In this document: piece after piece, positions 1,910 through 60,294 of the stretch
Position numbering within the stretch: the stretch's first letter is position 1
How the letters are laid out: the number at the start of each line of letters is the position of its first letter
Origin: Candidatus Falkowbacteria bacterium
GTDB taxonomy: Bacteria > Patescibacteriota > Patescibacteriia > Patescibacteriales > WJLG01
DNA length: 64,000 nucleotides
Assembly (NCBI GenBank): GCA_963747695.1
Contig: CAVVFV010000012.1
Coordinates: forward strand, 26,659-90,658
Reading direction: 5' to 3'
The notes under the pieces: generated by a model
Databases searched by the model: none
What the model saw: only the letters and a program-made list of their open reading frames with translations
What the model was told of the DNA's origin: nothing
Translations under genes and position numbers: made by a program

Positions 1910-3172
1910 ATGAGAGAAGATTCAATTGTCGGCTTAGATATCGGTTCGACCGAAGTAAGATTGGTGGTCGGCCAAAGGAATGAGCAAAACGGCGGCCGAT
2001 TGCAGATAATCGGGGCGATCTCTTCGCCGTCCGAAGGCATCAATAAAGGAATGGTCAAAAGCATCGATGATACCACGTCTTCGATCTCTTCGCTTTTGGA
2101 AAAAGCTGAACGCTTGATCGGTTTGCCGATCAGCAATGTTTACGTCAGCGTCAACGATCCTTTTATCAGGTGTGAAAAAAGCAAAGGCGTGGTTGCGGTC
2201 GGCAAAAGCAATGGCGAAATCAGCCAGGAAGATGTGGAACGGGCGATCGAAGCGGCGCGGACTTTAAGTATGCCGCCTAACTATGAAATTCTCCACGTCA
2301 TTCCCATCAAATTCACGGTGGACAACCAGGAAGATATCAAAGATCCGATCGGGATGAGCGGCATCCGTCTGGAAGTCGAAGCTTTGATCGTTCAGGGGAT
2401 GACCAGCCAGATCAAGAATTTGACCAAGGCGATCTATCGCACCGGATTGAATATTGATGATTTGGTTTTATCGTCGCTCGCTTTGGGCGAGGCCGTGTTG
2501 AGCTCCAAGCAGAAAGATTTGGGAGTGGCTGTCGCCGGGATCGGCGCCTCCACGACGACGCTCGCGGTTTATGAAGAAGGTAAATTGATCCACGCCGCGG
2601 TCATTCCGATCGGCGCGGATCATATCACTTCCGACATCGCGATCGGTTTACGCTGCCCGATCAATCTGGCTGAACGGGTGAAGATCGAATATGGCAATGC
2701 CGTACCGAAAAATTTCTCCGGGAAGGAAGAAGTGGACATTTCCGAGCTGGCCAGGGAAGAAGAAGTGGAAGATGATATCAAGGAAATCTCCAAAAAATAC
2801 GTGGCGGAAATAATCGAGGCGCGCGCCGAAGAGATCTTTGACCGAATTGACGAACAATTGAAGAAAATCGACCGTTCCGGGTTGTTGCCGGCCGGTGTCG
2901 TTTTAGCCGGAGGCGGAGCTAAGCTGGCCGGTCTGGTCGAAGTGGCCAAGGATCGGCTGCGTTTGCCGGCCTCGGTGGGAATTTGCCGCAATGCCGAGAT
3001 TGTTTTTGACAAGGTTAACGATTCCAAATATCTAACCGCGCTGGGTCTGGTCATTTGGGGCAATACGTTCACCACCAAAAGAGTGGGCGGGGGAGCGATG
3101 GGCGGGATCAGCAATTTTTTTGACGATGCTAACAAGAAAATCAAAGAAATTTTTTCCCGATTCGCTCCGTGA
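1910..3172 (+). CDS. ftsA: Cell division protein FtsA (actin-like ATPase)
   Basis: IVGLDIGSTEVRLVVGQ N-terminus, actin-fold motifs, immediately upstream of ftsZ. Confidence 0.9.
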   Translation: MREDSIVGLDIGSTEVRLVVGQRNEQNGGRLQIIGAISSPSEGINKGMVKSIDDTTSSISSLLEKAERLIGLPISNVYVSVNDPFIRCEKSKGVVAVGKSNGEISQEDVERAIEAARTLSMPPNYEILHVIPIKFTVDNQEDIKDPIGMSGIRLEVEALIVQGMTSQIKNLTKAIYRTGLNIDDLVLSSLALGEAVLSSKQKDLGVAVAGIGASTTTLAVYEEGKLIHAAVIPIGADHITSDIAIGLRCPINLAERVKIEYGNAVPKNFSGKEEVDISELAREEEVEDDIKEISKKYVAEIIEARAEEIFDRIDEQLKKIDRSGLLPAGVVLAGGGAKLAGLVEVAKDRLRLPASVGICRNAEIVFDKVNDSKYLTALGLVIWGNTFTTKRVGGGAMGGISNFFDDANKKIKEIFSRFAP

Positions 3173-3301
3173 TTGAAATTGTCCGATTGTACAATTTTTT
3201 TATTCACCTGGCGGAACGATGATTTAGTAGGTTGATAAATAGGCTAAAATAAGCATAAATATCTGAAGATATTTAAGCCCCCCAAAGGCTTGATATTTTT
3301 T

Positions 3302-3329
3302 TTACAATAGGATAAACTTATAGTATAAT
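3302..3329 (+). promoter_or_regulatory. Putative sigma70-like promoter for ftsZ (TTACAA-16-TATAAT)
   Basis: ttacaa taggataaacttatag tataat in the 330-bp ftsA-ftsZ spacer. Confidence 0.35.
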
Positions 3330-3459
3330 ATTCTACTGTTCAATTAGTTTATACACTAAGGTTTAATTTGTAATATTTTTTGCGAGCGACGAGGTACACA
3401 TAATTGCGAGGGTCGGCCGGATAGTGGAGCGACCCGAGCCTCATTAGGAAGGGGGAGTC

Positions 3460-4695
3460 TTGAGGGGGAAACCCGTCAAGGGTTTCCCCCTCAAATTGCA
3501 TATGGCTGAAATAAAACCATTGGCTGAAACATTCGCCAAGATCAAAGTTGTCGGCGTGGGCGGCGGCGGCGGAAGCGCCATCCAAAGAATGATTGAAAAA
3601 GGAATTAGAGGCGTTGAATTTGTGGCCATCAATACTGATGTCCAGGCTTTGCATTACAATAAAGCCGGCGATAAATTGCATATCGGCAAATCGGTTACCC
3701 GCGGTTTGGGAGCCGGGATGAATCCGGAATTGGGCCGCCAGGCGGCGGAAGAATCACAGAATGAGATCAGGGACGTTTTGAAGGGTTCGGATATGGTGTT
3801 TATTACTTGCGGCTTAGGCGGCGGCACAGGCACGGGCGCGGCTCCGGTAGTCGCGGAAATTGCCCGCGATCTGGGCGCTTTGACTGTCGCGGTGGTAACC
3901 AGACCTTTTTCTTTTGAAGGCGGTCAGCGCAAGGCGATCGCCGAACGCGGTTTTGCCGAACTGGCCGACAAGTTGGATACGATCATCACTATCAATAATG
4001 ATAAGTTGTTACAAATTATCGATAAGAAAACTTCCTTGATGGAAGCTTTCTCGGTGGCGGATGATGTGCTGCGCCAGGGCGTGCAAGGCATTGCTGAAAT
4101 CATCACGATTCCCGGCTTGATCAACGTCGACTTCGCCGATGTGCGGGCGGTGATGCAGAATGCCGGTTCGGCTTTAATGGGCATCGGCCAGGCTTCCGGA
4201 GAAAATCGGGCGATCGAGGCGGCCAAAGCGGCAATCAATTCAACTCTGTTGGATATGTCAATCGATGGCGCCCGCGGCATCGTTTTCACGATCACCGGCG
4301 GACCGAGTTTGGGGATGACCGAAGTTTCCGAAGCGGCCAAGGTGATTACCGCCTCGGCGGATGCCGAAGCCAAGATTATTTTTGGCGCAGTCATTGACGA
4401 TAAATTGAAAGACGAAATAAAAGTTACGGTCGTGGCTACCGGTTTTGACGGCCAGGCCAGGGATATTACCAGCAAACAGATGCGGACGGCGTACACGCCG
4501 AACAGCTTTATCAGTTCGGCGGAAAAGGAAGATAAGAATCGCGGCTGGTTCGGCGGTAAATCCGATGCCTCATCCGACACAATCAAGAAAAGCAAGATTT
4601 CGCCGGTCAAAATGGCCCAGGAAGAATTGCCGGACGAAGAATCAGAAGAAGGCGAGCTCGGTATTCCGGCGTTTATTCGGAAAAAAATGAAATAG
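3460..4695 (+). CDS. ftsZ: Cell division GTPase FtsZ (start either TTG 3460 or ATG 3502)
   Basis: [30 protein letters not shown] tubulin signature; acidic/basic C-terminal tail. Confidence 0.95.
3462..3493 (+). promoter_or_regulatory. Perfect 13-bp-stem hairpin (GAGGGGGAAACCC gtcaag GGGTTTCCCCCTC) overlapping ftsZ translation start region
   Basis: Exact inverted repeat read directly; 5' arm contains SD-like GAGGGGG; ends 8 nt before ATG 3502. Confidence 0.6.
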
Positions 4696-4774
4696 CGTTA
4701 TCCCGCCGCGGCGGGACGGCACATCCGAATTAAGTTGAAAGTTGTAAAGTATTTTGGAAAATTTGCATAAAATA

Positions 4775-4807
4775 AAAAAGACGCGCTCAGTTGAGGCGTC
4801 TTTTTTG
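4775..4807. terminator. Bidirectional rho-independent terminator (ftsZ + / fba -)
   Basis: aaaaaa GACGCgctcagttgagGCGTC tttttt; A-run before, T-run after. Confidence 0.7.
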
Positions 4808-4820
4808 ATGGGATCAGGGC

Positions 4821-5804
4821 TTAAAACGATAGAGAGAGGAAGGATTTGAGTGATGAGCTTTTCGGCTTTGACTTGGTTTTCAGTTCCAGTTTGCCGAGAA
4901 AGATTTTGTAAGCGTTTTCGGCCGTGTAGTCGTAGAGAATGACCGCCGCAATGGCATTGGCCATGCGGATCGCTTCGGGAAGCGGACGCTGATAAATATT
5001 GCGCCCAACGGCGACTCCGCCGGTGCCGGAAATATGGATTTGATTGTGAAGTTGTTGGAGGAATTTTTTTTCCGCCATCTTGGTGCCGCCGATCGGAACT
5101 ACTTTGGATCGTCCGGCCGCTACCACGACTTCGCGGAATTTTTTGGCGGTTTCGACCGTCGGTTTGTCATAAGGATAGCTGATTTTGACGAAATCAGCGC
5201 CTAAACAGACAGCCACTCCGGCCCCGCCGGCCAATAAATGCAGATTGGTTTCATCCTTGACCGCTTTGCCGCGCGGGTACATCCAGATTACCGCGAGTAA
5301 TCCTTCCTGATGGGCATCGTAGATGATCCGAGCGGCCTGCCCGAAAGATTCCGACTCGAATTCGCTGCCGATATAAACCGTATAGCCGACGCCGATGATA
5401 TTCAAACCGGAATTTTTTTTGAATTTTATCACGTCATCCATCGGCAGCCAGCGGTTGGAAAATGGATCACGTTCCGCCTTGTTGATGAGATTAGTCTTGG
5501 AATTAGCTTTAATGAGGAACGGCACATTCGGGCAAATATCCGCGTATTTGGCAATCAAGCCTAATTGCGAGCCCAGGACTCCGATATGAGCTTGTTTGGC
5601 GATTTCAAAATAATGTTTGGGATCGGCTACCGAAGCATCCAGTCCCGGGCCGACAAAGTCATCGTTCAAATGCTCGACCTTCTGGTCGCAAGCATACATA
5701 AACAGCCTGCCGGTGCCGCGGGTGGCGATTTTCCAATTCTTCAAATATTCGGCGTGCTTGGCGCGAGGAACGTCGTAGGGAATGTGGATTTTTTGCATAG
5801 ACAT
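4821..5804 (-). CDS. Class I fructose-bisphosphate aldolase, archaeal type (DhnA/FbaB family)
   Basis: TIM-barrel aldolase pattern, Schiff-base lysine context GADFVKISYP, GRNIYQ motif; family assignment from recall. Confidence 0.65.
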   Translation of the reverse strand: MSMQKIHIPYDVPRAKHAEYLKNWKIATRGTGRLFMYACDQKVEHLNDDFVGPGLDASVADPKHYFEIAKQAHIGVLGSQLGLIAKYADICPNVPFLIKANSKTNLINKAERDPFSNRWLPMDDVIKFKKNSGLNIIGVGYTVYIGSEFESESFGQAARIIYDAHQEGLLAVIWMYPRGKAVKDETNLHLLAGGAGVAVCLGADFVKISYPYDKPTVETAKKFREVVVAAGRSKVVPIGGTKMAEKKFLQQLHNQIHISGTGGVAVGRNIYQRPLPEAIRMANAIAAVILYDYTAENAYKIFLGKLELKTKSKPKSSSLKSFLSLSF

Positions 5805-5883
5805 TTTTAAATAAAGGCGTTATATGATAAAATGTAATATAAATCAGTAATTATATTATACCATAAAAATTAAGATTGTTTAA

Positions 5884-5964
5884 TTGTTATATTGTCATAT
5901 TGCTATATTGTTAAAATGTATTGAATTGTTGTCTAGCAATATAACAATATGACAATATGGCAAT
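5884..5964. repeat. Repeat family B locus 1 (TTGTCATATTGCTATATTGTTA inverted pair)
   Basis: attgttatattgtcatattgctatattgtta ...spacer... tagcaatataacaatatgacaatatggcaat in divergent fba/gpmI spacer. Confidence 0.8.
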
Positions 5965-5978
5965 TTTAACGATAATGA

Positions 5979-7607
5979 TTGAAGTATCTTTTGTTTATGA
6001 CTGATATTAAGAAGAAAAAACCCATTGTTCTGGTAATCTTGGACGGCTGGGGTGAATGGGATATCGAGAAGGGCAACCCGATCGTGAAGTCCAAATTGCC
6101 GCTGATCGATAAATTAAACTCCCACTATCCCAAAACTTATCTGCAGGCGTCGGGCATGGCAGTTGGTTTGCCTTGGGGCGTTAGAGGCAATTCGGAAGTC
6201 GGCCACCAGACCATCGGTTCGGGCCAGATCGTCTTTCAGTTTTTGCCGACAATTTCCACGGCGATCACCGAAGGATCTTTTTTCAAGAACGAGGCGATCC
6301 TCGGCGCTTTTGACTGGGCGAAAAAAAATAATTCCAATCTGCACGTCCTGGGATTGCTTTCTGATGGATCAGTCCATTCCCACATCGAACATCTGTTCGC
6401 GCTTTTGGAGATGGCCAAGAACCGGGAAGTCAAAGAAGTTTATATCCATGCCGTGACCGATGGGCGTGACACGCACCCGCAAAGCGCTAAGCGATTTATT
6501 GAGCAGCTGGAAAATAAAATTAAAGAAATCGGCATCGGGAAAATTGCCACGCTAAGCGGCCGCTATTTCACCATGGATCGGAATAACAATTGGGACAGAG
6601 TGGAGAAAGCCTTCCTGGCAATCACCTCAGGCATCGGCATTCGAGAAAAAAATCCTCACCAGGCGGTGGATAACCAGTACGCCCGGAATATTTTTGATGA
6701 ATATTTGGAACCGGTCGTTTTAGAAGGGGATAACGGCGAACCGGTCGCGCTGATCAAGGATAACGACGCCGTGATTTGTTTCAACTTCCGCAAGGACCGT
6801 TCCCGCCAGATCACCAAGGCTTTCGTGCTGCCTAGTTTTAAAGAATTCAAACAAGCCAAGCCGCCGGCCAATCTCAAATATGTCTGCTTCGCGCCTTACG
6901 AAGAAGGACTTCCGGTTGACGTGGCTTTTCACGAGCAGCAGATCACTGTTCGTTTGGGTGAAATATTGGCCAAGAATTGGAAAAGGCAATTGCGCATTTC
7001 CGAAACGGAAAAATACGCGCACGTCACTTATTTTTTCAACGGCGGATTGGAAGAGCCGTATTTTTACGAGGACCGGATTTTGATCCCCTCCAAACGCGTG
7101 ACCACTTATGCGGATGCGCCGGAAATGAGCGCTACGGAAATCACCGATAAATTGCTGGAAGCGATGGAAAAAAATAATTATGATTTTATTTTGGTTAATT
7201 ATGCCAATTCCGATATGGTCGGCCACACGGGAAATTATCCGGCGGCCGTCAAAGCCCTGGAACACGTGGACGGTTGTCTGGCTCGATTGATTGAAGCCGT
7301 ATTTGCCAAAGGCGGAGAATTGATCATCACCGCCGATCACGGCAATGTCGAAGAGATGTTGAATATCTATACCGGCGAGCCGGACACCCAGCATTCCAAA
7401 AATGTGGTGCCCTGCTGGTATGTCAGCCCGGACAGCTGGATTGAAAGCTCGGAAAAACCCAAGAAGATCGAAGCCGGCGGTCTGCTGGTCGATCTGGCCC
7501 CGACCGTTCTGGATCTTCTCGGTTTTGAAAAACATCCGGCGATGGTCGGCTCAAGTTTGATCCGGCAATTCAAAAAGATGATGCCGGAAGAGGAAGAGGA
7601 AGAATGA
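5979..7607 (+). CDS. gpmI: 2,3-bisphosphoglycerate-independent phosphoglycerate mutase (iPGM)
   Basis: ILDGWG...RGNSEVGHQTIGSG N-terminal phosphatase-domain motifs, 542 aa. Confidence 0.9.
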   Translation: MKYLLFMTDIKKKKPIVLVILDGWGEWDIEKGNPIVKSKLPLIDKLNSHYPKTYLQASGMAVGLPWGVRGNSEVGHQTIGSGQIVFQFLPTISTAITEGSFFKNEAILGAFDWAKKNNSNLHVLGLLSDGSVHSHIEHLFALLEMAKNREVKEVYIHAVTDGRDTHPQSAKRFIEQLENKIKEIGIGKIATLSGRYFTMDRNNNWDRVEKAFLAITSGIGIREKNPHQAVDNQYARNIFDEYLEPVVLEGDNGEPVALIKDNDAVICFNFRKDRSRQITKAFVLPSFKEFKQAKPPANLKYVCFAPYEEGLPVDVAFHEQQITVRLGEILAKNWKRQLRISETEKYAHVTYFFNGGLEEPYFYEDRILIPSKRVTTYADAPEMSATEITDKLLEAMEKNNYDFILVNYANSDMVGHTGNYPAAVKALEHVDGCLARLIEAVFAKGGELIITADHGNVEEMLNIYTGEPDTQHSKNVVPCWYVSPDSWIESSEKPKKIEAGGLLVDLAPTVLDLLGFEKHPAMVGSSLIRQFKKMMPEEEEEE

Positions 7608-7610
7608 TTT

Positions 7611-7722
7611 TATTGCTATATTGTCATATTGTTATATTGATGCGCAACGATTTTAATCGATTAAGTTGTTTAATTCCGTTGCATAACAATATAACAATTT
7701 AGCAATATAATAATATGATAAT
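7611..7722. repeat. Repeat family B locus 2
   Basis: tattgctatattgtcatattgttatattg ...gcgcaacg..cgttgc... caatataacaatttagcaatataataat. Confidence 0.75.
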
Positions 7723-7735
7723 TAAACAATAAAAA

Positions 7736-7766
7736 ACGCCTTCTTTACGAAGACGTTTTTTAAAAT
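7736..7766. terminator. Bidirectional terminator-like hairpin (gpmI + / ferredoxin -)
   Basis: aaaaaacgccttctttacgaagacgtttttt; 8/9 bp stem, A-run and T-run flanks. Confidence 0.5.
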
Positions 7767-7773
7767 TCGACGG

Positions 7774-7950
7774 TTATTCCTCCACAAATATCGCTTCCAC
7801 CGGGCACTGGTCGGCAGCGGACATCGCACAGTCGTGATTGGCGCCGATGACGGTTGATTTTCCCATCTCATCAAGCTTAAAAGTATCGGGACAGACTTCG
7901 GTGCAGCGGCCGCAGCCGATGCATTTTTCTCGGTCAACTTTGATAAGCAT
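7774..7950 (-). CDS. Ferredoxin, single 4Fe-4S/3Fe-4S cluster type (58 aa; missed by ORF track, <60 aa)
   Basis: Translated by hand: MLIKVDREKCIGCGRCTEVCPDTFKLDEMGKSTVIGANHDCAMSAADQCPVEAIFVEE; CxxCxxC...CP motif. Confidence 0.75.
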   Translation of the reverse strand: MLIKVDREKCIGCGRCTEVCPDTFKLDEMGKSTVIGANHDCAMSAADQCPVEAIFVEE

Positions 7951-7979
7951 AAGATTGTTGATTAATTTTTTCTAGAAAA

Positions 7980-8156
7980 TTATTCGCTAATCGTGATGGC
8001 CGATACCGGGCATTGGTCGGCGGCTGACTGGGCGCAATCCGGATTGGCGCCGATGACGGTGGATTTGCCCATCTCGTCTAATTTAAAAGTATCCGGGCAA
8101 ACTTCGGTGCAACGGCCGCAGCCGATGCAAGTATCGCGGTCAATGTTGATGGTCAT
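7980..8156 (-). CDS. Ferredoxin paralog (58 aa), tandem duplicate
   Basis: MTININRDTCIGCGRCTEVCPDTFKLDEMGKSTVIGANPDCAQSAADQCPVSAITISE; ~75% identical to downstream copy. Confidence 0.75.
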   Translation of the reverse strand: MTINIDRDTCIGCGRCTEVCPDTFKLDEMGKSTVIGANPDCAQSAADQCPVSAITISE

Positions 8157-8346
8157 AATTTGTTGATTGGTTAATTTGTTAATTAGGTGATTGGTTTTAA
8201 TTATAGCATATCTTTTTTGTAGTATGTAGTAAGTAGTAGGCAGTATGGTTTTTGATAAAAAATTGATCGGTTGACAAAGTAATTTGATCGTGGTAATTTA
8301 TAATGTTCTTTTAAAAATCATAACATTAACCGAAAAGAGGTAAAAA

Positions 8347-8682
8347 ATGTTTAACAAAAACGGCCAAGAGGTTAAGCTTAAAGATGGTTGCTCTTTAGCC
8401 TTTAAAGAAGTTAATAAGGATGGAGTAATGGTTGTTTTACCGACACAACACACGCCTTTCTTGGAAGGCTACTATTGGGCGAAAGGTAATTTTAACAAGG
8501 CCCGTGTCGTGCTTAAGAATCGAGGAAGAGAAGTGGAGTATGGACATCCTACCATTTTATTAATATCTGAATCAATGGCTGCTATGGTGGGCATGGAAAT
8601 TGAAAAAAGAGATGATGGTCGGCCAAATCAATTCATAAGGGGTGATGATACCATCGTGGTGGTGTTGCAGAAGATCAAATAG
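8347..8682 (+). CDS. Hypothetical protein (111 aa), cargo of IR-bounded cassette
   Basis: RBS agagg 8 nt upstream; no recognisable domain. Confidence 0.5.
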   Translation: MFNKNGQEVKLKDGCSLAFKEVNKDGVMVVLPTQHTPFLEGYYWAKGNFNKARVVLKNRGREVEYGHPTILLISESMAAMVGMEIEKRDDGRPNQFIRGDDTIVVVLQKIK

Positions 8683-8705
8683 TGAAACATAGCTTGATTA
8701 TCTTA

Positions 8706-8730
8706 GGGGAGCAAGAGCTCCCCTTTTTTA
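8706..8730 (+). terminator. Rho-independent terminator
   Basis: GGGGAGC aag AGCTCCCC ttttttta. Confidence 0.8.
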
Positions 8731-9007
8731 TTCGATATACCATACTACATACTGCATACTACATCGATGCTCTTGACGAATTTTTTATATATGTTATTAT
8801 TGAATCAATCAAATAAAGCCATAGACAGTAGGCACAAACATAAGACCTACCGAGGCAAAAACATAGCTTAATCAATAAGCTTTTTGCAGTCTGTGGTTTC
8901 GGCCAGAGATTTTTTGTTTATAATGACAAATTACAAATTAGGAATTACAAATTTAGAAGATAAAATAATTTGTAATCCGTAATTTTTAATTTGTAATTGA
9001 TAAGAAT

Positions 9008-9535
9008 ATGCCTAAAACAAGAGCACAAAAGCAGGTGATCCTGGAAGGTTTGGCTGAGAAGGTGAAAGGTGCCAAGTCGGTTGTTTTCGCGAAGTTCGCC
9101 AAATTGGGCGCCAAGGAAAACGAAGATTTGCGCAAACGCCTCAAGGCCGAGGGCGGCGAATATTATGTCGCCAAAAAAACTTTGCTGAATCTGGCTTTCA
9201 AAAACAACAACCAAGAAGTGGATTTTAAGAATATGGATGGCCAAGTCGCCGCCGTGTTCGGCTACCAGGACGAAGTGGCTCCGGCCAAGATCGTCGATAC
9301 TTTCCGCAAGGAAATGGAAGAGCCGAAAATATTCTTCTTGGGCGGAATCTTGGAGAACAAGTTCATCTCCAAAGAAATGGTGGAAAGTCTGGCCAAACTT
9401 CCTTCGAAGAAGGAATTGTATGCCAAGCTGGTCGGTTCATTGAACGCTCCGGTTTCCGGATTCGTCAATGTCTTGGCCGGTAATCTCCGCGGATTGGTCA
9501 CCGTGCTAAAGGCGATTGGGGAGAAAAAAGTATAA
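9008..9535 (+). CDS. rplJ: 50S ribosomal protein L10
   Basis: L10 N-terminal pattern KQVILEGLAEKVKGAKSVVFAKF, precedes rplL. Confidence 0.9.
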   Translation: MPKTRAQKQVILEGLAEKVKGAKSVVFAKFAKLGAKENEDLRKRLKAEGGEYYVAKKTLLNLAFKNNNQEVDFKNMDGQVAAVFGYQDEVAPAKIVDTFRKEMEEPKIFFLGGILENKFISKEMVESLAKLPSKKELYAKLVGSLNAPVSGFVNVLAGNLRGLVTVLKAIGEKKV

Positions 9536-9541
9536 AATATA

Positions 9542-9648
9542 ATGCGAATACTACAAATTGTTCGCGAATACTACGAATAGATTTAACGAATTTAATTCGA
9601 TAAATAGTTCGCGGTATTCGCGAAAAATTCGCTGTATTCGCATCATGG
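9542..9648. repeat. Repeat family C locus 2 (inverted orientation relative to locus 1), inserted between rplJ and rplL
   Basis: atgcgaatactacaaattgttcgcgaatactacgaatag...cgcggtattcgcgaaaaattcgctgtattcgcatcatgg. Confidence 0.8.
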
Positions 9649-9725
9649 AATAAAGCTAATAAATCAAATATAAATAATTGGTTCATGATACATGATTCAT
9701 GTTACATGCTACCTGTAATAAAACT

Positions 9726-10121
9726 ATGGAAGACAAGAAAATTGAAGTTCCGGCCAAGTTTGAAAAATTGGTTTCGGAAATCGAAAAGATGAGCGTTCTG
9801 GATTTAGCCGAATTGGTTAAGATCCTCGAAGAGAAGTTCGGCGTTTCCGCCGCCGCCCCGATGATGGCCGCTGCCGCCGGTGCCGCTGCCGCAGCTCCGG
9901 AGGAAGAGAAGGATTCTTTCAATGTCGAATTGACTGAAGCCGGCCCCAACAAGATCGCCGTCATCAAGGCCGTCCGGACCGTTACCACTCTTGGTTTGAA
10001 GGAAGCCAAGGATTTGGTTGACGGAGCCCCGAAGATGGTGAAGGAAGGCGCCAAGAAAGACGAAGCCGAATCAATCAAGAAAACTCTGGAAACTGCCGGC
10101 GCGAAAGTCATCCTGAAGTAA
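9726..10121 (+). CDS. rplL: 50S ribosomal protein L7/L12 (start at ATG 9726 rather than track start 9699)
   Basis: Ala/Pro hinge [19 protein letters not shown] and C-terminal [27 protein letters not shown]. Confidence 0.9.
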
Positions 10122-10134
10122 ATACTTCTTCAAA

Positions 10135-10171
10135 TAAAAAAACGTCCTCGACTATGAGGACGTTTTTTTAT
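10135..10171 (+). terminator. Rho-independent terminator after rplL
   Basis: aaaaaACGTCCTCgactatGAGGACGTttttttt. Confidence 0.85.
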
Positions 10172-10189
10172 TAAAAATATAAATTACTT

Positions 10190-10443
10190 TATAGCGCGCA
10201 TTGGAAAATTTTGGATCAGACGCGCAGCGTGGAAACCGTGCAAAATTGCGTTGTCTGAGGAGGCGCCGCGCCGACGAGTATAGCAATTTTGCTAGGTTTC
10301 ATAGCGGAGCGTCCCAAAATTTGTCCAGCGCGCAGTTTTTTGCGCCACTTTTTTTAAAAAAAGTGGCAAAATACAGAATTAATAATGTTGGGAATGTACC
10401 CACCCGCCTCGCCGGGCTCGGCACCACTCCCGAGAGGGGATCC
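10190..10443 (+). ncRNA. Candidate structured ncRNA / complex repeat element, copy 1 (~255 nt; TATAAA-like box upstream, GC hairpin at 3' end)
   Basis: Homologous to 54220-54485 with compensatory substitutions in two helices; the 90-aa ORF across it is not conserved in copy 2. Confidence 0.4.
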
Positions 10444-10445
10444 TT

Positions 10446-12737
10446 CTATTTTATAACCGGAATAGGCATCTGATAAACCGAGTGATCGGCCAAGATATAA
10501 ATCTGCTTGTCCTTGTCGTTGACGGCAAAATCTTTGACATTATTAAGATCGGTGAAAATATATTGAGCCAGATAAGTGCCCTTGCTATTCCAGAGAATCA
10601 GCCGTTTGGCGGCGGGTTCGAACACGTAAAAATAATCGGCGGTGACGATCAGCCGGGTGGCGCCGGTAACGGGCGGATCGACCGCATCGAGAACCAGATC
10701 CTGTTTTTTGCCTTTGAGATATTTTTCAACCGTGCCGTTACTATATAAGACGTATAAATTTCCGTTATCATCGATATAAAGCGCGCTGGAAGAAGCAAGA
10801 TTGCCGGTCTGATTGAGCCATTTGGTGGGATTGACGAAAGCAGCGGCGCTGCGGGTGTAGCGGTAGATTTGCCCCAAGCTTTTATCCAGGACATACATCT
10901 TGTCGCTATAAGCTTCCAAACCGCCGATGTTTGCCGGCGTCGAAGGCAAGGCGATCGTCAGCAAGCTGGGTTGATCGGTTTTATCAAGTTGGAAGATATT
11001 ATTGCCGGATAAATAAAGAATATTATTATCCTGACCGGCCGAGGGGAGAGTGATTGGACCGGAAGTGGCGATACCCAGAGTATAATCCGCGGTTACGATG
11101 TTTTGTTTGACGTCGATTTTGAAGATCGCGTTATTCTGCGAATCCGCCGCGTAAACGATATTGTTGTTGAAAAAAATATTTTGCGGCTGAGCCGAGGCGG
11201 TCAGATTGGAAAAGTCGCCGATCTTATTCAAGCCGGAAATATTGTTGATGTTTTGGATTTTTAGCAATTGCTGTTTCTGTTTGTCGAAGAGAGCCTGGAC
11301 CGATTGCCTTTGGCTAGCTTCCGCGGCCGGTATTTGCGCCAGCAAGTCTTTATTTAAATTATAAAGTTGAGTGGCTTCCGTCTTGTTGCCGTAAACGAAA
11401 TCGGCATCGATCTTGTCCTGATTCTTGCCGATGGAAGCGACTAAGGCATTAAAATCGCGCAGCTTGGCGTCGGATTGATTTTTCTGATTAGTGAAGTATA
11501 AGCCGATAAAGAAGACGGCGATGCAGATGACAGCGACGACCAAGATTATTTTTATCTTCTTGCCGCTGATAACCAAAGGCTTTTTTTCCGCAGGCGTCGC
11601 CGGTTCGGCGGCCGGCATTTCGTCATCCGGCCGGCGTTGCAATATTTTGCCGATAAAGACGAAGAACGCCGCGATCAATTTACCTAATTTCTTGAAGAAA
11701 TCCTTGGTTTTTTCCGAAGAAATCAAACCATTCCTTTTTTTGAAGAAGATTTTTTCTTTCAAGAGGAACATTCCCCGCGACGATTTTGTTTCACGGGGTT
11801 CGGCTACGGTCGGCGACGGTTTGATTTTTTCGCTGATCGCTTTGGTCCATTTCTTCAGATTGACGATCCCGGCCGGAGTCATAATCTCCTCGGTTTTTTC
11901 TTCAGTGCGGACGATCTCCGGTTTATAATCATCGATTTTAATCTCTTCTTCCAGCCGACTTTTCAGTTCTTCGCCGGAAAGGGACATCGCCACCGTATTC
12001 TTAATGATAATTCCCAGAAAAGAAACATAAGAGTTGATCTGCTCGAGCAGATTGCGGATCTGTTCGGCGGCTCCGGTTGGGGAAAGCTTGGTAATGATCC
12101 TGATTAATTGCTTGTTGGACAGATATTCGGATAAAGCTTCGTTGATCACCAGAAAATATCCGCCGACCGGAATTTTGCCGCTCACCACATTGGAAAAGAG
12201 CTTGTTGATGTTCAAAGCTTCGCTTTCCGGAGCATCGCCGACATCAGAAATCTTGTATTCGATCTTTTCCGTTTCCGACGGCTCGCTTTCTTTTTGCTTG
12301 AGTGATGTTTTTTCCTTATAGATGAGGAGGGTCTTATTCTTGCCCGTGCCGGCAAAATATATTTCGTTTTTATAGAGTACGCAAATGCTGATATTGAAAG
12401 CGTAGGGGCTGATTTTCATCTTCTGCTGGGTGATGAATTCCGCCAAGTCCTTATTGGTTTTAGACAAGGCGCTTTCGAAGATGCTTTCCAGGGAGATCGA
12501 CTCGATTCTTTCCTTGAGGATGACTTTTTCGTTCTGGTAGTAGTTAAAGTTGATGTTATTTATCAAAAATTCCAGCAGTTTGGGAGCTTCCGAACCGGTT
12601 GACTGGATTTCCGCCAAAATAAAAAGCTTCCCGACCAGGGCTTCTTTCTGATTGTCAGGCTGGGCGATAAAAATGTCGCTGGCTGTGCCCGACTTCTGCT
12701 CATTATTCAATAAAATCGAAGCGATTTTGTAATACAT
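10446..12737 (-). CDS. Large membrane protein: cytoplasmic N-terminal domain, central TM helix, extracellular beta-propeller-like C-terminal repeats
   Basis: 763 aa; hydrophobic segment IILVVAVICIAVFFIGLYF; repeated NxxY/LYVL-type strands in C-terminus. Confidence 0.5.
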   Translation of the reverse strand: MYYKIASILLNNEQKSGTASDIFIAQPDNQKEALVGKLFILAEIQSTGSEAPKLLEFLINNINFNYYQNEKVILKERIESISLESIFESALSKTNKDLAEFITQQKMKISPYAFNISICVLYKNEIYFAGTGKNKTLLIYKEKTSLKQKESEPSETEKIEYKISDVGDAPESEALNINKLFSNVVSGKIPVGGYFLVINEALSEYLSNKQLIRIITKLSPTGAAEQIRNLLEQINSYVSFLGIIIKNTVAMSLSGEELKSRLEEEIKIDDYKPEIVRTEEKTEEIMTPAGIVNLKKWTKAISEKIKPSPTVAEPRETKSSRGMFLLKEKIFFKKRNGLISSEKTKDFFKKLGKLIAAFFVFIGKILQRRPDDEMPAAEPATPAEKKPLVISGKKIKIILVVAVICIAVFFIGLYFTNQKNQSDAKLRDFNALVASIGKNQDKIDADFVYGNKTEATQLYNLNKDLLAQIPAAEASQRQSVQALFDKQKQQLLKIQNINNISGLNKIGDFSNLTASAQPQNIFFNNNIVYAADSQNNAIFKIDVKQNIVTADYTLGIATSGPITLPSAGQDNNILYLSGNNIFQLDKTDQPSLLTIALPSTPANIGGLEAYSDKMYVLDKSLGQIYRYTRSAAAFVNPTKWLNQTGNLASSSALYIDDNGNLYVLYSNGTVEKYLKGKKQDLVLDAVDPPVTGATRLIVTADYFYVFEPAAKRLILWNSKGTYLAQYIFTDLNNVKDFAVNDKDKQIYILADHSVYQMPIPVIK

Positions 12738-14462: not shown

Positions 14463-14589
14463 TTTGTCATCCTGAGGCCCCTGGCCGAAGGATCTGATCC
14501 TTCCCGTGTAAAAAAAAGTTTGTTTTTAAGATAAATTTTGTGCGTCCTTGGAAGGAGCAGATCCTTCGCGCGGCGCTCAGGATGACAAA
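14463..14589. repeat. Repeat family K locus 1 (TTTGTCATCCTGAG...GAAGGATC / GATCCTTC...CTCAGGATGACAAA)
   Basis: Inverted arms at 14463-14494 and 14560-14589; relatives at 19925-20070 and 63091-63142. Confidence 0.8.
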
Positions 14590-14593
14590 ATAA

Positions 14594-16360: not shown

Positions 16361-16491
16361 AATGCTAATTAGTTATAATGCTAATTTTCGAATGATGCGA
16401 ATTTCGCGAATTCCCCTCTTGGGAGGGGTGCCGAGCCCGGCGAGGCGTGGTGGGTCATTCGTAGATTCGCATCATTCGTGAAATTAGCATT
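16361..16491. repeat. Family-C-like palindromic element with nested GC-rich hairpin module (16412-16454) identical to the 3' module of the 10190/54220 elements in reverse orientation
   Basis: aatgctaatt...gatgcgaatttcgcgaat TCCCCTCTTGGGAGGGGTGCCGAGCCCGGCGAGGCGTGGTGGGT cattcgtagattcgcatcattcgtgaaattagcatt. Confidence 0.7.
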
Positions 16492-16500: not shown

Positions 16501-16995
16501 ATGAAAATATTTTCCGCCTTTGGTTTGGATATCAAGATTTTGATCGCTCAGCTGATCAATTTTGCGATCCTGCTTTTTATCTTGTGGAAATTCGCCTATA
16601 AGCCGATGTTCAAGATTTTGGACGACCGCAAGAAGAAGATCGAAACCGGCATTGAGAATGCCGCTAAGGCTGAAGAAAAATTAAGAGAGATCGGCGAAGA
16701 AGAAAAGAAGATTTTGGTCGAAGCGAAAAGAGGGGCGGCGAAAATTCTGGATGATGCCCGTTTGATGGCCGAAGAAAGCCGCAAGAAGAATATTGACAAG
16801 ACCAAAGAAGAGATCGGCCAGCTGATCAATCAGGAAAAAGAAAGTATGCGTCAGGAAAAAGCGGAAATTCTGAAAAGCATCAACCGCGAAGTCGCGGATT
16901 TGGTGGTGGCGACGGTGGAGAAAGTTATCAATGAGAAAATGACCGGCGCTAAGGATGAAGAATTGATCAAAAAGGCGATTGGCAAATTAAAATAA
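16501..16995 (+). CDS. atpF: F0F1 ATP synthase subunit b
   Basis: N-terminal TM helix then long charged coiled coil; position in operon. Confidence 0.8.
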   Translation: MKIFSAFGLDIKILIAQLINFAILLFILWKFAYKPMFKILDDRKKKIETGIENAAKAEEKLREIGEEEKKILVEAKRGAAKILDDARLMAEESRKKNIDKTKEEIGQLINQEKESMRQEKAEILKSINREVADLVVATVEKVINEKMTGAKDEELIKKAIGKLK

Positions 16996-17003: not shown

Positions 17004-17408
17004 TTGTCATTCCCGCGCAGGCGGGAATCCAGTAACCTTGTCATTCCCGCGAAGGCGGGAATCCAGAAAATATGAAGGAGGGGAAAAGTTATTACGTTTA
17101 TATTTTAGCCGGCAATAGAAACGGCACGCTTTACACGGGCATTACCAATAGTTTGATTAGAAGAATTCAAGAACATAAAACAAAATACTTTAAAGGTTTT
17201 ACGGAAAAATATGGAGTTGATAAGTTAGTGTATTATGAAATTTATGGCAGTCCGAACGATGCGATTCATCGGGAGAAATGTATTAAAAAATGGAATAGAG
17301 ATTGGAAATTAAATTTAATAGAAAAGAATAATCCAACTTGGAAAGATTTATCAGTAGATTTATATTAACGTTTTTAATCTGGATTCCCGCCTTCGCGGGA
17401 ATGACGAA
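17004..17408. mobile_element. TIR-bounded mini-element carrying a GIY-YIG nuclease gene, inserted between atpF and atpH
   Basis: Two direct copies of TTGTCATTCCCGCG(C/A)AGGCGGGAATCCAG at 17004-17031 and 17038-17066; perfect inverted copy CTGGATTCCCGCCTTCGCGGGAATGACGAA at 17379-17408. Confidence 0.6.
17072..17368 (+). CDS. GIY-YIG nuclease family protein (YhbQ/UPF0213-like, 98 aa)
   Basis: SYYVYIL..GTLYTGITNSLIRRIQEH GIY-YIG core; low GC. Confidence 0.8.
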   Translation: MKEGKSYYVYILAGNRNGTLYTGITNSLIRRIQEHKTKYFKGFTEKYGVDKLVYYEIYGSPNDAIHREKCIKKWNRDWKLNLIEKNNPTWKDLSVDLY

Positions 17409-17413: not shown

Positions 17414-17815
17414 ATGAAGATAACCGCTAAACAATATGCTACCGTCTTGCTGGAAAGTTTGGAAGGCAAGAACGAAAAACAAGCTGGTGTTACTATCAAG
17501 AAGTTCGCCGATGTTTTGCGTGCCAATAATCATTTGTCATTGCTCGGTGGCATCATCAGATTTTTCAATGAAGCTTGGGATAAGAAGAATAATACCGTGG
17601 AAGCGGAAATTGTGACGGCCAGAGCGATTAGTAAAGAAGCGATTGCTGAATTGGAAAAATTCATCAAAGCTCGTGCCGGTAGCGATAAGGTTGAAATGTC
17701 AGAAAAGATCGATCCCAGTTTGTTAGGCGGAGTAGTTTTAAGATATGGCAACAAATCACTGGATTTGAGTTTAAAAACGAAATTAGCGGATTTGAAGAGG
17801 CAGATTGTAAATTAA
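17414..17815 (+). CDS. atpH: F0F1 ATP synthase subunit delta (short OSCP form)
   Basis: 133 aa; C-terminal LLGGVVLRYGNKSLDLSLKTKL delta signature; operon position. Confidence 0.75.
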   Translation: MKITAKQYATVLLESLEGKNEKQAGVTIKKFADVLRANNHLSLLGGIIRFFNEAWDKKNNTVEAEIVTARAISKEAIAELEKFIKARAGSDKVEMSEKIDPSLLGGVVLRYGNKSLDLSLKTKLADLKRQIVN

Positions 17816-18121: not shown

Positions 18122-18245
18122 GAATTTCTCCTAGGAAAAAGTTTATTGAAAAGGACGTTAGTTATTATCAAAATATCATATCATATTTTGTATATAATGT
18201 CAATAAGATTGAGATATAACCCAATAAAAAAGGCTTAAAATGTAT

Positions 18246-18320
18246 AATTAGTTCATTGGTCGATTAGTTAATTAGTTTTGTAGACTAAGTGACTAATCAA
18301 CTAATTAACTAATCAACTAA
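18246..18320. repeat. Repeat family E locus 1 (GATTAGTTAATTAGTT / AACTAATTAACTAATC inverted pair) with TATAAT boxes upstream of atpA
   Basis: Perfect 16-bp inverted arms; relatives at 44070-44190 and 37088-37121. Confidence 0.75.
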
Positions 18321-18326
18321 AAACAT

Positions 18327-19862
18327 ATGAGTAATACTAAAGATTTCATCATTGAAGAATTGAGAAAACGGATCGACGGTTTTAAATCCGAAGCCGGCGA
18401 AAAGACTTTCGGCCGCGTGATTTCCGTCGGCGACGGCATTGCCCGCGTATCCGGCTTAGGCGACGCGATGATGTCGGAAATGTTGGAATTCAAATCCGCT
18501 GCCGGTTCAAAGTTCGGCGTGGTTTTGAATCTTGAAGAGGACTCGGTCGGCGCGATTATTCTTGATGATACGGAAGGAATCAAGGAAGGGGATGAAGTCG
18601 TGGCTTTGAAGCGCATTTTGGAAGTTCCGGTTTCGGAAGCGATCATCGGCCGCGTTTTGAATCCGTTGGGTAAAGCTCTGGATGGCAAAGAAGAAATCAA
18701 AACAACTAAATTTTATCCGGTGGAAAAAGTCGCTCCGGGCGTTATCACCCGTGAATCCGTGAAAAAGCCGTTGCAGACCGGCATTAAAGCTATCGACGCG
18801 ATGATCCCGATCGGCCGCGGCCAGCGCGAACTAATCATTGGCGATCGTCAGATCGGTAAGACTGCTATCGCTATTGACACTATCATTAACCAGAAGGGCA
18901 AGAACGTTAAATGTATTTATGTTGCAATCGGTCAGAAGGAATCGAAGATCGCCGGCATCGTTGCCAAATTGAAAGAAGCAGGCGCGATGGAATATACCAC
19001 CGTTATTTTGGCGGGCGCTTCGGACCCAGCTTCTCTCTTATATATCGCTCCGTTTGCCGGTTCGGCTATGGCGGAATATTTCTTGGATAAAGGCGAGGAT
19101 GTTTTGATCGTTTATGATGACTTGACCAAGCACGCCGCGGCTTATCGCGAACTTTCTCTTTTGTTAAGAAGACCTCCGGGACGCGAGGCTTATCCGGGCG
19201 ACGTTTTTTATCTCCATTCTCGTTTATTGGAACGTGCTTGCAAATTGAACAAGGATTTTGGCGGCGGTTCCATTACCGCTTTGCCGGTTATTGAAACTCA
19301 GTCCGGCGACGTGTCCGCTTACATTCCGACCAATGTTATTTCCATTACCGACGGCCAGATTTATCTGGTTCCGGATTTATTTTATCAGGGCAATCGTCCG
19401 GCCGTGGATGCCGGTATTTCCGTTTCCCGTGTCGGTTCAGCCGCGCAGATCAAGGCGATGAAAAAAGTGGCCGGCAAGATGAGGTTGGAAGTGGCGCAAT
19501 ATCGCGAGCTGGCGGCTTTCGCCCAGTTCGGTTCGGATTTGGATGAAGATACAAAAAGAAAATTGGAACGCGGCAAGCGCATCGTGGAAATCTTGAAGCA
19601 AGGCCAGTATGTCCCGATGCCCGTGGAAGAGCAGGTGGCGATTTTCTTTGCCGTGACCAATGGCTTGATGGATAATGTGCCGGTGGAAAAGATCGTTGAA
19701 TTTGAACCGAAGATGGTTGAATATGTGAAGGCCCGCGGCGCAGATGTGTTGAAGGCGATCAAGACATCCGGTGAATTGACTGATGATACGAATGCAAAGT
19801 TGAAGAAGTTGATAGAGGATTTTAAGGACACATTAGAATATGTAGGGAAGTCGGGTATATAA
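18327..19862 (+). CDS. atpA: F0F1 ATP synthase subunit alpha
   Basis: P-loop [13 protein letters not shown] and alpha-specific motifs; 511 aa. Confidence 0.95.
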
Positions 19863-19915
19863 TGCGAATACTACGAATTGTACGCGAATACAACGAACAT
19901 TTATTTACGAAAGTT
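19862..19915. repeat. Partial family C copy
   Basis: aatgcgaatactacgaattgtacgcgaatacaacgaac. Confidence 0.6.
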
Positions 19916-19924
19916 TTTTAAATT

Positions 19925-20070
19925 TTTGTCATCCTGAGCGCCGCGCGAAGGATCTATTGTCCGAGAAGCTTTCAATTTATAGATAAAAAATTTTGATTGA
20001 ATAAAGTCGGCGTTCCTTCAATATAGATCCTTCGTCAGGGACTCCCTGGCCGGGCAGGCAGGATGACAAA
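19925..20070. repeat. Repeat family K locus 2
   Basis: tttgtcatcctgagcgccgcgcgaaggatc ... gatccttcgtcagggactccctggccgggcaggcaggatgacaaa. Confidence 0.8.
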
Positions 20071-20142
20071 AGAAAGAAGAATGGCAAAATAAAAAAAACG
20101 ACCCGTTGGAGATGAGCCGTTTTATAAAGACTTTTTTGTGGT

Positions 20143-21607: not shown

Positions 21608-23416
<1,809 letters not shown>

Positions 23417-25114: not shown

Positions 25115-25176
25115 TCGTAGGAACGCAATATTTTGCGTTCCCGTTCGCCAGAACGCAAAATATTGCGCTCCTACGA
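25115..25176. repeat. Repeat family A locus 2 (inverted pair)
   Basis: tcgtaggaacgcaatattttgcgttc ... gaacgcaaaatattgcgctcctacga. Confidence 0.8.
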
Positions 25177-28598: not shown

Positions 28599-28665
28599 GG
28601 TAGGAACGCAATACCTTGCGTTCTGATTCACGGCATTTATCGTAGGAACGCAATACCTTGCGTTC
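28599..28665. repeat. Repeat family A locus 3 (two direct units)
   Basis: ggtaggaacgcaataccttgcgttc ... cgtaggaacgcaataccttgcgttc. Confidence 0.8.
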
Positions 28666-28695
28666 TATCTTTGCAAGAATAATTCGAGAGTTAAT

Positions 28696-36974: not shown

Positions 36975-37121
36975 TATTTTTCAAGTTCTTATAAATTTCT
37001 CATCTGTCCGCGGACAGGTGGGAAATAATAAGAAAATTGAATAATAGTTACTTAGTTGTCTTGCTGGCCAAGATAAATCGAATCCCAAACTAATTAACCA
37101 ATTAACTAATTCACTAATATA

Positions 37122-44069: not shown

Positions 44070-44190
44070 CTTAATTAGTCGATTAGTTAATTGGTTAATT
44101 AGTTTTATTGCAAAAAAGTTTCGGCTAATTTTATTATCGAAGCCTAATTTTACTAAAACTAAGCACCTAATTAACTAAGCAACTAATGAC
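44070..44190. repeat. Repeat family E locus 2
   Basis: cttaattagtcgattagttaattggttaattagtttt ... aactaagcacctaattaactaagcaactaatgac. Confidence 0.75.
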
Positions 44191-44223
44191 ATTGTTTATT
44201 GTTGAAAATCAAAAATTCGGACA

Positions 44224-47683: not shown

Positions 47684-47743
47684 GAACGCAATATTTTGCG
47701 TTCAAAATAAATCGCAGGAACGCAAGATATTGCGTTCCTACAG
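47678..47743. repeat. Repeat family A locus 4; murF stop codon TAG is part of the repeat
   Basis: gcgtaggaacgcaatattttgcgttc ... gcaggaacgcaagatattgcgttcctacag. Confidence 0.8.
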
Positions 47744-47783
47744 TTTTATATGTCACAAAATTGAAGTAAAACCGTTAATATAT

Positions 47784-51503: not shown

Positions 51504-51611
51504 TTGTCATATTGTCATATTGTCATATTGCTATATTGTTACGCTACGAAATTAATTAGCTGTGTATTGAAAACGTTGCGCAACAATATAACAATATAGC
51601 AATATAACAAT
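51504..51611. repeat. Repeat family B locus 3 (three tandem TTGTCATA units in left arm)
   Basis: attgtcatattgtcatattgtcatattgctatattgtta ...ttgcgcaac... caatataacaatatagcaatataacaat. Confidence 0.8.
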
Positions 51612-51618
51612 AAATCCG

Positions 51619-54147: not shown

Positions 54148-54219
54148 TTTTCTGTTATATAGAATGCGAATTTTTTTAATTGGTTTTTTTGTTAATTTAT
54201 AATCTTCCTTATAGCGCGC

Positions 54220-54485
54220 ATTGGGAAATTTCCGTAATCACGCAGCGTAGAAGCCGTGCAAAAGTTGCGTTGTCCGAAGCCCGCTTCATTATTATAAAAA
54301 TTATAAATAAAGGCGGGCAAGAATAGCAATTTTGCTAGGCTTCCTAGCGGAGTGATAGGAAATTTTCCCTGCGCGCAGTTTTTTGCGCTACTTTTTCTAA
54401 AAAAAGTAGCAAAGATTTTGAAATAATGTCAGGAATATACCCACCCCGCCTCGCCGGGCTCGGCACCCCTCCCAAGAGGGGATTT
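54220..54485 (+). ncRNA. Candidate structured ncRNA / complex repeat element, copy 2 (~265 nt; TATAAT at 54198-54203; 3' GC hairpin + T-run)
   Basis: Homolog of 10190-10443; CCCCTCccaaGAGGGGattttt 3' end abuts recR stop. Confidence 0.4.
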
Positions 54486-60290: not shown

Positions 60291-60294
60291 CATT

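Follow-up and report, generated by a model that had tools for sequence, protein, structure and literature searches.

Through sequence analysis of a 64,000-nucleotide (nt) stretch of contig CAVVFV010000012.1 from a Candidatus Falkowbacteria bacterium, here called the window, two intergenic elements have been characterized: copy 1 at 10190-10443 and copy 2 at 54210-54485. Each of them is a composite of two separate dispersed intergenic repeats lying side by side, named here the core and the GC module. The core is best read, with a probability of about 0.55, as a lineage-specific structured intergenic repeat family of the BOX/ERIC/bcr1 kind, standing beside a SPRITE-like repeat, the GC module. 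The family itself appears to be undescribed, since it has no Rfam match and the literature on Patescibacteria repeats and non-coding RNAs (ncRNAs) yielded only unrelated TIGR-Tas papers, although the kind of element is already known. The initial annotation, made from the window alone, had proposed a two-copy RNA gene; the core is instead dispersed, with 30 copies or more, and is absent from both window sites in close relatives.

The two window elements are homologous, with 82% identical columns over about 330 nt in a MAFFT alignment, and an nhmmer profile of the family detects them with E = 1.8e-56 and 7.3e-65. Exact shared 17-19-mers are confined to these copies, about 0-0.3 being expected from shuffles. 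The homology reported in the initial annotation is therefore real, and every block quoted there as shared is present in both copies; the palindromes GCGCCAC..GTGGC (10342-10367) and GCGCTAC..GTAGC (54385-54410) are also as described, and only the start of copy 2 has to be moved, from 54220 to 54210. Both strands of each copy fold far better than shuffles (z -5.3 to -7.6), and the common fold comprises, in order, a long rod hairpin closed by GCGCGC, a T-run, a 24-nt palindrome and a GC-rich 3' part. The elements had been considered non-coding, which is borne out by the 90-amino-acid open reading frame (ORF) at 10201-10473 being present in copy 1 alone, with no counterpart in copy 2. A type I toxin-antitoxin system or small protein gene has been rejected, as this ORF is unique to copy 1 and the candidate ATGs are not conserved; the lengths of the apex and of the GC hairpin vary by non-multiples of 3.

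About 33 core copies have been collected, from two metagenome-assembled genomes (MAGs) and 24 metagenome contigs, and their range is limited to a narrow Patescibacteria group. An exact-pattern scan of 185,579 species genomes gave seven matches, in two MAGs only: JAQUPS01 (Patescibacteria bacterium) and DATJQC01 (labelled Nanoarchaeia). The metagenome scan with exact patterns gave 26 matches on 24 contigs, and the nhmmer family profile added diverged or disrupted copies beyond these patterns. With the same profile no further core was found in the 64-kb window, and phage, plasmid and viral collections yielded nothing with blastn or with the two exact patterns. The DATJQC01 MAG (loci L002, L003, L004 and L007), whose deposited name is 'Candidatus Nanoarchaeia archaeon SMAG_U14930', almost certainly comes from a Patescibacterium and was mislabelled: its DnaB (protein P0004) is bacterial and 95% identical to that of the window, and it carries the same repeat families. 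Three core copies are located within 2.7 kb in L007, NTS-like palindromes stand in place of the centre of one core copy in L021, and many copies lie close to contig ends.

The anatomy of the core has been derived from an alignment of 29 distinct copies. From 5' to 3', it begins with an AT-rich lead, ATAAATAAATTTCCTTRTA, followed by P1, P2/P3, internal loops, P4, P5, a junction and an apical hairpin. P2/P3 occurs in two versions, version a pairing UUUUGG..GACGC with GCGUCCCAAAA and version b pairing UUUCCGUAAUCAC with GUGAUAGGAAA. The internal loops of the family are GCAGCGUA and CUAGCGGA; P4 pairs GAARCC with GGYUUC; P5, GCAAAAUUGC with GCAAUUUUGC, is nearly invariant; and the junction between P5 and the apex reads GUUGUCCGAAG .. 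CAAGUAUA. The apical hairpin is represented by at least eight unrelated versions (i-viii) of 11-110 nt. Past the apex and the descending arms come the 3' strand of P1, U5-6, the palindrome GCCAC-U7-A7-GUGGC (hairpin 2) and then AAAGAUNUUUGA. The whole core measures about 190 nt, or up to about 280 nt with long apices, and the arm version, P4 state, apex version and GC module are found in many combinations among the copies.

In copy 1, all parts of which are read on the plus strand, the AT-rich lead at 10173-10193 (family consensus as above, recognised by alignment of upstream regions) contains a -10-like TAAATT at 10180-10185. The long rod hairpin occupies 10194-10333, as supported by the minimum free energy (MFE) fold, RNAalifold on the 29 copies and pair counts, and is closed by P1 GCGCGC (10194-10199 paired with 10328-10333). 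Within the rod are the P2/P3 arms of version a, the internal loops GCAGCGUG / AUAGCGGA, P4, P5 and an apical hairpin of version i, GGCGCCGCGCC, at 10262-10272. Two bases past P1 the alignment places a T-run (U6) at 10336-10341, which is kept in nearly all copies, followed by hairpin 2, the 24-nt palindrome GCCACTTTTTTTAAAAAAAGTGGC, at 10344-10367. The adjoining GC module, located at 10381-10440 by its nhmmer profile, has the form AATAATGTYRGGAAT..CCCACCC-[GC hairpin]-CCAC(T/C)CCC-N4-GAGGGGA. Copy 2, likewise on the plus strand, consists of a 5' lead at 54197-54213 with TATAAT at 54198-54203, a rod with version b arms at 54214-54376 (P1 at 54214-54219 paired with 54371-54376, apical hairpin of version iii at 54279-54318), a T-run after P1 at 54379-54384, and hairpin 2 at 54387-54410, in which GCTAC..GTAGC is a compensated variant. 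Its GC module at 54422-54482 carries a CCCCTC-CCAA-GAGGGG hairpin and then ATTTTT, and is terminator-like.

The initial annotation had called for covariation to be examined across homologues, and such covariation has been found. RNAalifold predicts 50 pairs on the 29 copies; 99% of the cells form a standard pair, against about 36-46% with the partners slid. Double-sided changes occur in 8 of the 50 pairs, and the covariation score of 0.145 (0.078 in shuffles) was reached by none of 500 shuffles. Five of the eight covarying pairs correspond to the a/b arm swap and are effectively one event. This bears on the long-range covariation first proposed from the two window copies: the arms do differ and stay paired, but they represent a swap of discrete versions a and b recurring in many copies and not serial independent events. 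The hairpin covariation proposed at the same time holds as point changes, the hairpin 2 pair at columns 324-344 being C-G in 26 copies, U-A in 2 and A-U in 1. Elsewhere, 14 copies have A-U and 12 have G-C at a P4 pair, whatever their arm type, a loop pair is C-G in 26 copies and U-A in 2, and a P5 pair changes from G-C to U-A in L007 4835-5016. Helix 6 of the RNAalifold model (UUGUC with GRCAA) is doubtful, as the covariation of column 200 is with the apical stem's first base. The core hairpin is under selection.

Several observations relate to the question of which strand is folded. P1 reads GCGCGC on both arms in 18 copies; in 9 both arms are GCGAGC, creating tandem G·A on the plus strand; GCGAGC is paired with GCUCGC in one copy, and mixed arms are seen only in the a/b chimera L021. 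Non-standard cells are mostly purine·purine on the plus strand, and the MFE of this strand is the lower one in 24 of 29 copies. A bias of G·U over A·C is absent, single-sided intermediates numbering 6 G·U and 5 A·C with helix 6 excluded, and wobble pairs are therefore uninformative as to an RNA strand. Among the pair changes, only the purine·purine (G·A) bias carries a strand signal, and it favours the plus strand, which is the likelier folded strand.

Comparison of orthologous sites shows that occupancy by the core differs between relatives. Window 2170-10912 aligns collinearly with locus L006 (JAQUPS01) at 77-86% identity. In L006 a different AT-rich inverted repeat follows rplL in place of copy 1, and a core is present where the window (4714-4821) has none. 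At the site of copy 2, no core lies between recR and rplU in four relatives (L033-L036) whose DnaB proteins are 95, 88, 87 and 81% identical, and in the two more distant of these four the spacers are only 151 and 37 nt. Since occupancy differs at orthologous sites, the core has been gained and lost on the time-scale of closely related genomes. Core copies are found in every orientation relative to the neighbouring genes. According to a rough automated call based on the longest flanking ORFs, with at least one known miscall, the copies having both neighbours on one strand are antisense in 11 cases and sense in 8, and of 28 scorable copies about 19 have their downstream gene on the other strand; convergent and divergent settings are also seen, and both window copies face convergent genes. 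Clustering of 203 flanking ORFs revealed no gene family travelling with the core beyond orthologous contexts.

Where orthologous copies have been retained, they are constrained in place. The copies L007m and L027 lie upstream of the same glyoxalase-like gene. Third codon positions are 63% identical, the spacers are about 60% identical, and the arms are identical at 65 of 67 and 90 of 92 positions, which makes them more conserved than second codon positions. The apex versions of this pair differ, and the GC module is present in only one of the two. In the pair L019 and L024, with a start codon 17-19 nt past hairpin 2, third codon positions are 54% identical and the conserved blocks are identical, and P1, P2/P3, P4, hairpin 2 and the apex all differ, every difference keeping the pairing. 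The paired constraint assumed in the initial annotation is thus seen, in that hairpin and loop sequences are constrained where the copies sit and orthologous arms are 97-98% identical or show compensated changes only. Judged from these comparisons, the orthologous copies are not parasitic insertions decaying neutrally. Two explanations would account for them: selection acting on every resident copy, or module replacement by gene conversion with a constrained family consensus.

The GC module behaves as a separate repeat. Its nhmmer profile detects five copies in the window, three of them solo, and 32 copies in the window and the fetched loci together, many of them solo; many cores have no GC module, and in L025 a GC module is inverted within the T-run of a core. 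The module is about 60 nt long and is built of AATAATGTCAGGAATAGACCCnCCCCG, a variable GC hairpin and CCACCCCTCCC-N3-4-GGAGGGGA, a T-run being carried by some modules only. One solo module of the window, found by repeat scan and profile at 16412-16460 on the minus strand, is located between atpE and atpF, antisense to both, in the middle of a different palindromic repeat. The other two, found by profile, lie at 61351-61413 (minus strand) and at 61492-61549 (plus strand); the GGAGGGGA of the latter ends 13 nt 5' of ATG 61563, the probable start of a radical-SAM gene for which the ORF list gives GTG at 61541. The terminator-like 3' end ascribed to both window copies stands in so far as a GC hairpin is present, but the hairpin belongs to an independent repeat and not to the core, and a T-run is clear in copy 2 only. 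The GC module is a SPRITE-like, terminator-like separate repeat that supplies a hairpin and T-run in some copies only.

Among known systems, the closest parallel to the core is seen in the BOX elements of Streptococcus pneumoniae and S. suis (PMC3049150). Both are dispersed intergenic modular repeats, in both the outer modules pair mutually and the inner module varies without disturbing the fold, and both are clustered with and inserted into other repeat families. BOX is restricted to a narrow clade and expressed as a structured RNA, without a settled mobilising enzyme; nested insertions occur among pneumococcal repeats, and expression is recorded for large BOX elements (PMC3049150). The differences relate to sequence, in which no similarity is found, and to construction: BOX has as its variable part a single boxB unit repeated in tandem, whereas the apex of the core is one of at least eight unrelated hairpins of the lengths given above. 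Unlike BOX, the core has two alternative arm versions and a constant 3' palindrome, and its host is a Patescibacterium. The bcr1 repeats of the Bacillus cereus group and the ERIC repeats of Enterobacteriaceae, of about 125-155 bp, are imperfect intergenic palindromes like the core, and their distribution, too, is not conserved between related strains (PMC3184786). The former are transcribed, with compensatory base changes keeping an RNA hairpin, and the latter are transcribed and affect mRNA stability when co-transcribed (PMC3184786). However, bcr1 is flanked by 5-bp direct repeats, whereas the core has no definable target duplication, and ERIC-type elements have terminal inverted repeats with TA flanks, whereas no truly terminal inverted repeat can be defined for the core.

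The likeness to SPRITE of pneumococcus (PMC3049150) concerns the GC module only, both being short dispersed intergenic G+C-rich stems, often with a U-rich tract, located beside other repeats. The sequences are unrelated, and the GC module has two hairpins, one of them variable, and a Shine-Dalgarno/anti-Shine-Dalgarno-like CCCCUCC..GGAGGGG pairing; many of its copies have no T-run.

The core is multi-copy, non-coding, shorter than about 300 bp, highly base-paired and intergenic, as are MITEs (miniature inverted-repeat transposable elements), and it shares with BOX/ERIC/bcr1-type repeats an occupancy differing between relatives, a stem-loop with compensatory changes and a variable centre. A complex MITE, which the initial annotation kept as a caveat, comes near to the reading favoured by the data. 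Under this reading, recombination or gene conversion among the copies would have spread and reshuffled them or, alternatively, this would be the work of an enzyme from another locus with specificity for the folded single strand. The element would act while the plus strand is single-stranded, most likely as RNA arising from read-through of a neighbour or from its own weak -10-like box. The rod, closed by G+C-rich P1 and followed by U5-6, may end, attenuate or stabilise transcripts, and the purine-rich internal loops with their G·A pairs may form a protein-binding platform.

Several points weigh against the classification as a dispersed repeat of this kind. No terminal inverted repeats are definable at the true ends, the P1-P5 arms being internal; conservation reaches about 17 nt 5' of P1 and about 50 nt 3' (T-run, hairpin 2, AAAGATNTTTGA), without a matching inverse. 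A target-site duplication is not definable either, the boundaries being AT-rich and fuzzy and filled and unfilled sites not alignable; no clean empty site can be aligned because other repeats occupy the 'empty' orthologous sites. No mobilising enzyme has been found among the window ORFs or recurrent neighbours (64 kb and loci), with no Pfam match to a transposase, integrase or reverse transcriptase in about 58 window ORFs. The copies within one genome are old and diverged, at 70-90% identity, with no recent burst. The copies were found through patterns demanding exact conserved blocks, so that the invariance of these blocks is partly a product of the search. Finally, conservation of the arms above that of second codon positions is more than a purely parasitic repeat predicts and fits a host-level function, including that of an RNA gene.

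An independently transcribed, multi-copy small-RNA gene family is a possible but doubtful alternative. Each copy would have its own -10 box, a start just before P1 and an end at the U-run or the GC module, and the RNA would act in trans via its conserved purine-rich loops and P5, the swappable apex being a variable or specificity module. In the upstream alignment of 30 distinct copies, conservation is limited to about -17 to -1, and a TANNNT motif begins at -15 to -13 from P1 in 17 of the 30, corresponding to a TAAATT/TATAAT-like hexamer 8-9 nt before P1; this hexamer, however, lies within the generally A/T-rich conserved lead, no -35 enrichment is seen (2 of 30 copies against a background of 4.5), and a consensus scan found no plus-strand promoter at either window copy. 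Of the promoter-like 5' end described in the initial annotation there remains a -10-like AT hexamer in a conserved 5' end, lacking -35 enrichment. At the opposite end, G+C-rich P1 and the following U5-6 are conserved in nearly all copies and are terminator-like, but the stem measures 140-250 nt.

The structure is covariation-supported, the loop and P5 sequences are invariant across species with near-saturated synonymous sites, and the high identity of orthologous copies would also be expected of an RNA gene. The tandem G·A and the more stable plus-strand fold indicate the plus strand, but G·U changes are about as frequent as A·C changes. Copies without a same-strand downstream gene exist, including both in the window, which suits an independent transcript; yet about one copy per 30-80 kb of a small genome, site occupancy that varies among close relatives, the disruption of some copies (L021, L025, L031) and the entry of other repeats into the element would all be unusual for an essential small RNA. 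That the core constitutes a new class of mobile, multi-copy, independently transcribed Patescibacteria RNA, with an invariant protein-binding core (G·A-rich loops, P5) under locus-wise purifying selection, is rather unlikely; in that case the exchangeable apex and the alternative arms would be specificity modules with, for example, a guide-like or decoy function. The functional structured ncRNA family proposed in the initial annotation is upheld as far as a non-coding, covariation-supported hairpin constrained in place is concerned, but compensatory changes alone do not show a trans-acting RNA.

Less probable still is a single-stranded-DNA (ssDNA) recognition site, in which a nuclease or recombinase from another locus would act on the folded plus-strand hairpin, with a role in DNA uptake, replication or recombination. 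Parallels exist in the NTS/SRM hairpins recognised by Ssn GIY-YIG nucleases and in the REP sequences recognised by RAYT. The use of ssDNA-read hairpin repeats in this genome is plausible, as the window contains what looks like an Ssn module, and the conserved mismatches and bulges, the strand-specific purine·purine bias and the sequence-specific loops fit recognition by a protein; an orientation bias relative to transcription is absent. Nevertheless, known ssDNA-recognised repeats measure 20-40 nt and not 150-250 nt, no enzyme that could fill the role is linked to the core, neither the core nor the GC module fits the SRM motif, and the conserved U-run and -10-like box would be left unexplained. 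The NTS/SRM repeats read by the GIY-YIG ssDNA nuclease SsnA (PMC11893778) are likewise hairpin repeats with sequence-specific stems and many intergenic copies; the core and GC module are 2-8 times longer, have no SRM match and show no link to a GIY-YIG gene.

A cis-regulatory leader or attenuator (riboswitch-like) for the downstream gene is highly improbable: in L019/L024 and L007m/L027 the element, retained in orthologues, precedes a start codon on its own strand by 17-100 nt, and a scan detects a small alternative hairpin, GCGCAG..UUGCGC with a T-run behind it, in competition with P1 and hairpin 2, the three overlapping like attenuator alternatives, but both window copies and most others face a convergent gene or are antisense to both neighbours, the downstream genes are unrelated, and the alternative hairpin is weak in several variants.

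Known identities have been rejected as follows. Neither copy matches an Rfam 15 family at the gathering threshold; at E <= 10 there are weak matches far below it, most of them on the rplL terminator, and the few on the copies are at chance level. ARAGORN found no tRNA or tmRNA genes in the window. The absence of a known RNA class stated in the initial annotation is thus supported for both copies. Compared with the Rfam 15 families (6S, SRP, RNase P, tmRNA, OLE, ROOL, GOLLD, raiA), the core likewise has a rod-like, covariation-supported intergenic fold of 150-260 nt, but its copy number and its occupancy, differing between close relatives, are unlike those of the housekeeping RNAs. An SRM/NTS identity is rejected, as the regular expression HGTCWYN(0-2)YYVSBRHN(0-5)WNVSBRGN(0-2)RNCYNB matches neither cores nor GC modules. 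Integron attC sites form one-orientation arrays next to intI, with R''/R' core sites RYYYAAC / GTTRRRY; the core copies are dispersed and in mixed orientation, no integrase is present, and their ends are GCGCGC and not AAC/GTT.

Other repeats have been observed within the cores themselves. Apex variants as inserted copies of other dispersed palindromes have been ruled out for versions ii-v and viii, all of which were confined to cores in 235 kb. The idea does hold for CCTGCCTGCCGGCAGGCAGG, a perfect palindrome of 20 nt that interrupts cores at two separate sites and also occurs outside them; it is dispersed in related contigs (L007 3579-3598, L023, L032; L016 10177-10196; L020 2032-2051 and 5358-5377; L025 2031-2050), and appears to be a very small mobile palindrome. 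In L031, at about 1231-700 on the minus strand, a core copy has an apex insertion of several hundred nt that begins ACCTGAGGGTGCCATAGTGTCTCGACGCGAGACC and includes GC-rich segments with strong self-complementarity; possibly it is a further mobile or structured element.

Further features have been noted in the window. The region 17005-17406, inside the ATP synthase operon between atpF (16501-16995) and atpH (17414-17815), looks like a canonical Ssn module. It consists of tandem hairpin repeats TGTCATTCCCGCG[C/A]AGGCGGGAATCCAG at 17005-17032 and 17039-17066, an ORF at 17072-17368 for a 98-amino-acid single-domain GIY-YIG protein, and an inverted CGTCATTCCCGCGAAGGCGGGAATCCAG at 17379-17406, which is the Neisseria NTS consensus; these three repeats are the only matches to the SRM expression in the window. 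The NTS-ssnA-NTS layout has been described without mention of Patescibacteria (PMC11893778). Further repeats of the 'GTCAT + GC palindrome' type, such as TTTTGTCATCCTGAGCGCCGCGCGAAGGATCT, at 14559-14590, 19924-19955, 20043-20075, 63092-63127 and 63374-63405, resemble variant Ssn-related motifs and fail the published SRM expression. Short direct or inverted repeats of at least four additional families also occupy the intergenic DNA (CGTAGGAACGCAATATTTTGCGTTC, ATGCGAATACTACAAATTGTTCGCGAATAC, TATTGTCATATTGCTATATTG, ACTAATTAACTAATCAACT), with sites at, for example, 800-867, 25116-25173, 28599-28668, 47679-47751 and 60233-60300; 1745-1876, 9537-9648 and 19857-19897; 5880-5968, 7603-7723 and 51499-51614; and 8156-8199, 18245-18334, 37081-37131 and 44072-44192. 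It is in the centre of a member of one of these families that the solo GC module at 16412-16460 is nested.

A gene for a 119-amino-acid '23S rRNA-intervening sequence protein' (PF05635), at 21642-22001 between atpG and atpD, is a second small foreign-looking insert in the ATP synthase operon. The recR ORF next to copy 2 (54486-55046, minus strand) encodes 138 amino acids from its first ATG/GTG/TTG (54902), while its frame is open for 186 codons; RecR of relatives has 198-238 amino acids with an N-terminal HhH domain, and the window gene could have a non-standard start, a frameshift or a truncation. The sole Rfam match in the window at gathering level is an ordinary ribosomal protein L10 leader (RF00557, 49 bits) at 8801-8924, upstream of rplJ/rplL. 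Upstream of this leader lies a non-coding 154-nt direct repeat (7799-7952 / 8005-8158), the two units of which are 81% identical and 206 nt apart.

For genome scanning, the core indicates that compensated changes between two copies are insufficient to call a trans-acting ncRNA, as dispersed palindromic repeats give the same signal. Patescibacteria have very small genomes, usually described as poor in repeats and mobile DNA, and are thought to depend on DNA uptake. The intergenic DNA analysed here is a mosaic of hairpin repeat families, namely the core, the GC module, the 20-nt palindrome, NTS/SRM repeats with an Ssn-type nuclease gene, and others. The in-place constraint on the core suggests a function in transcript ending or stability, or in the handling of single-stranded DNA. 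Should the core prove to be an RNA gene, it would represent a new structured RNA class with exchangeable modules.

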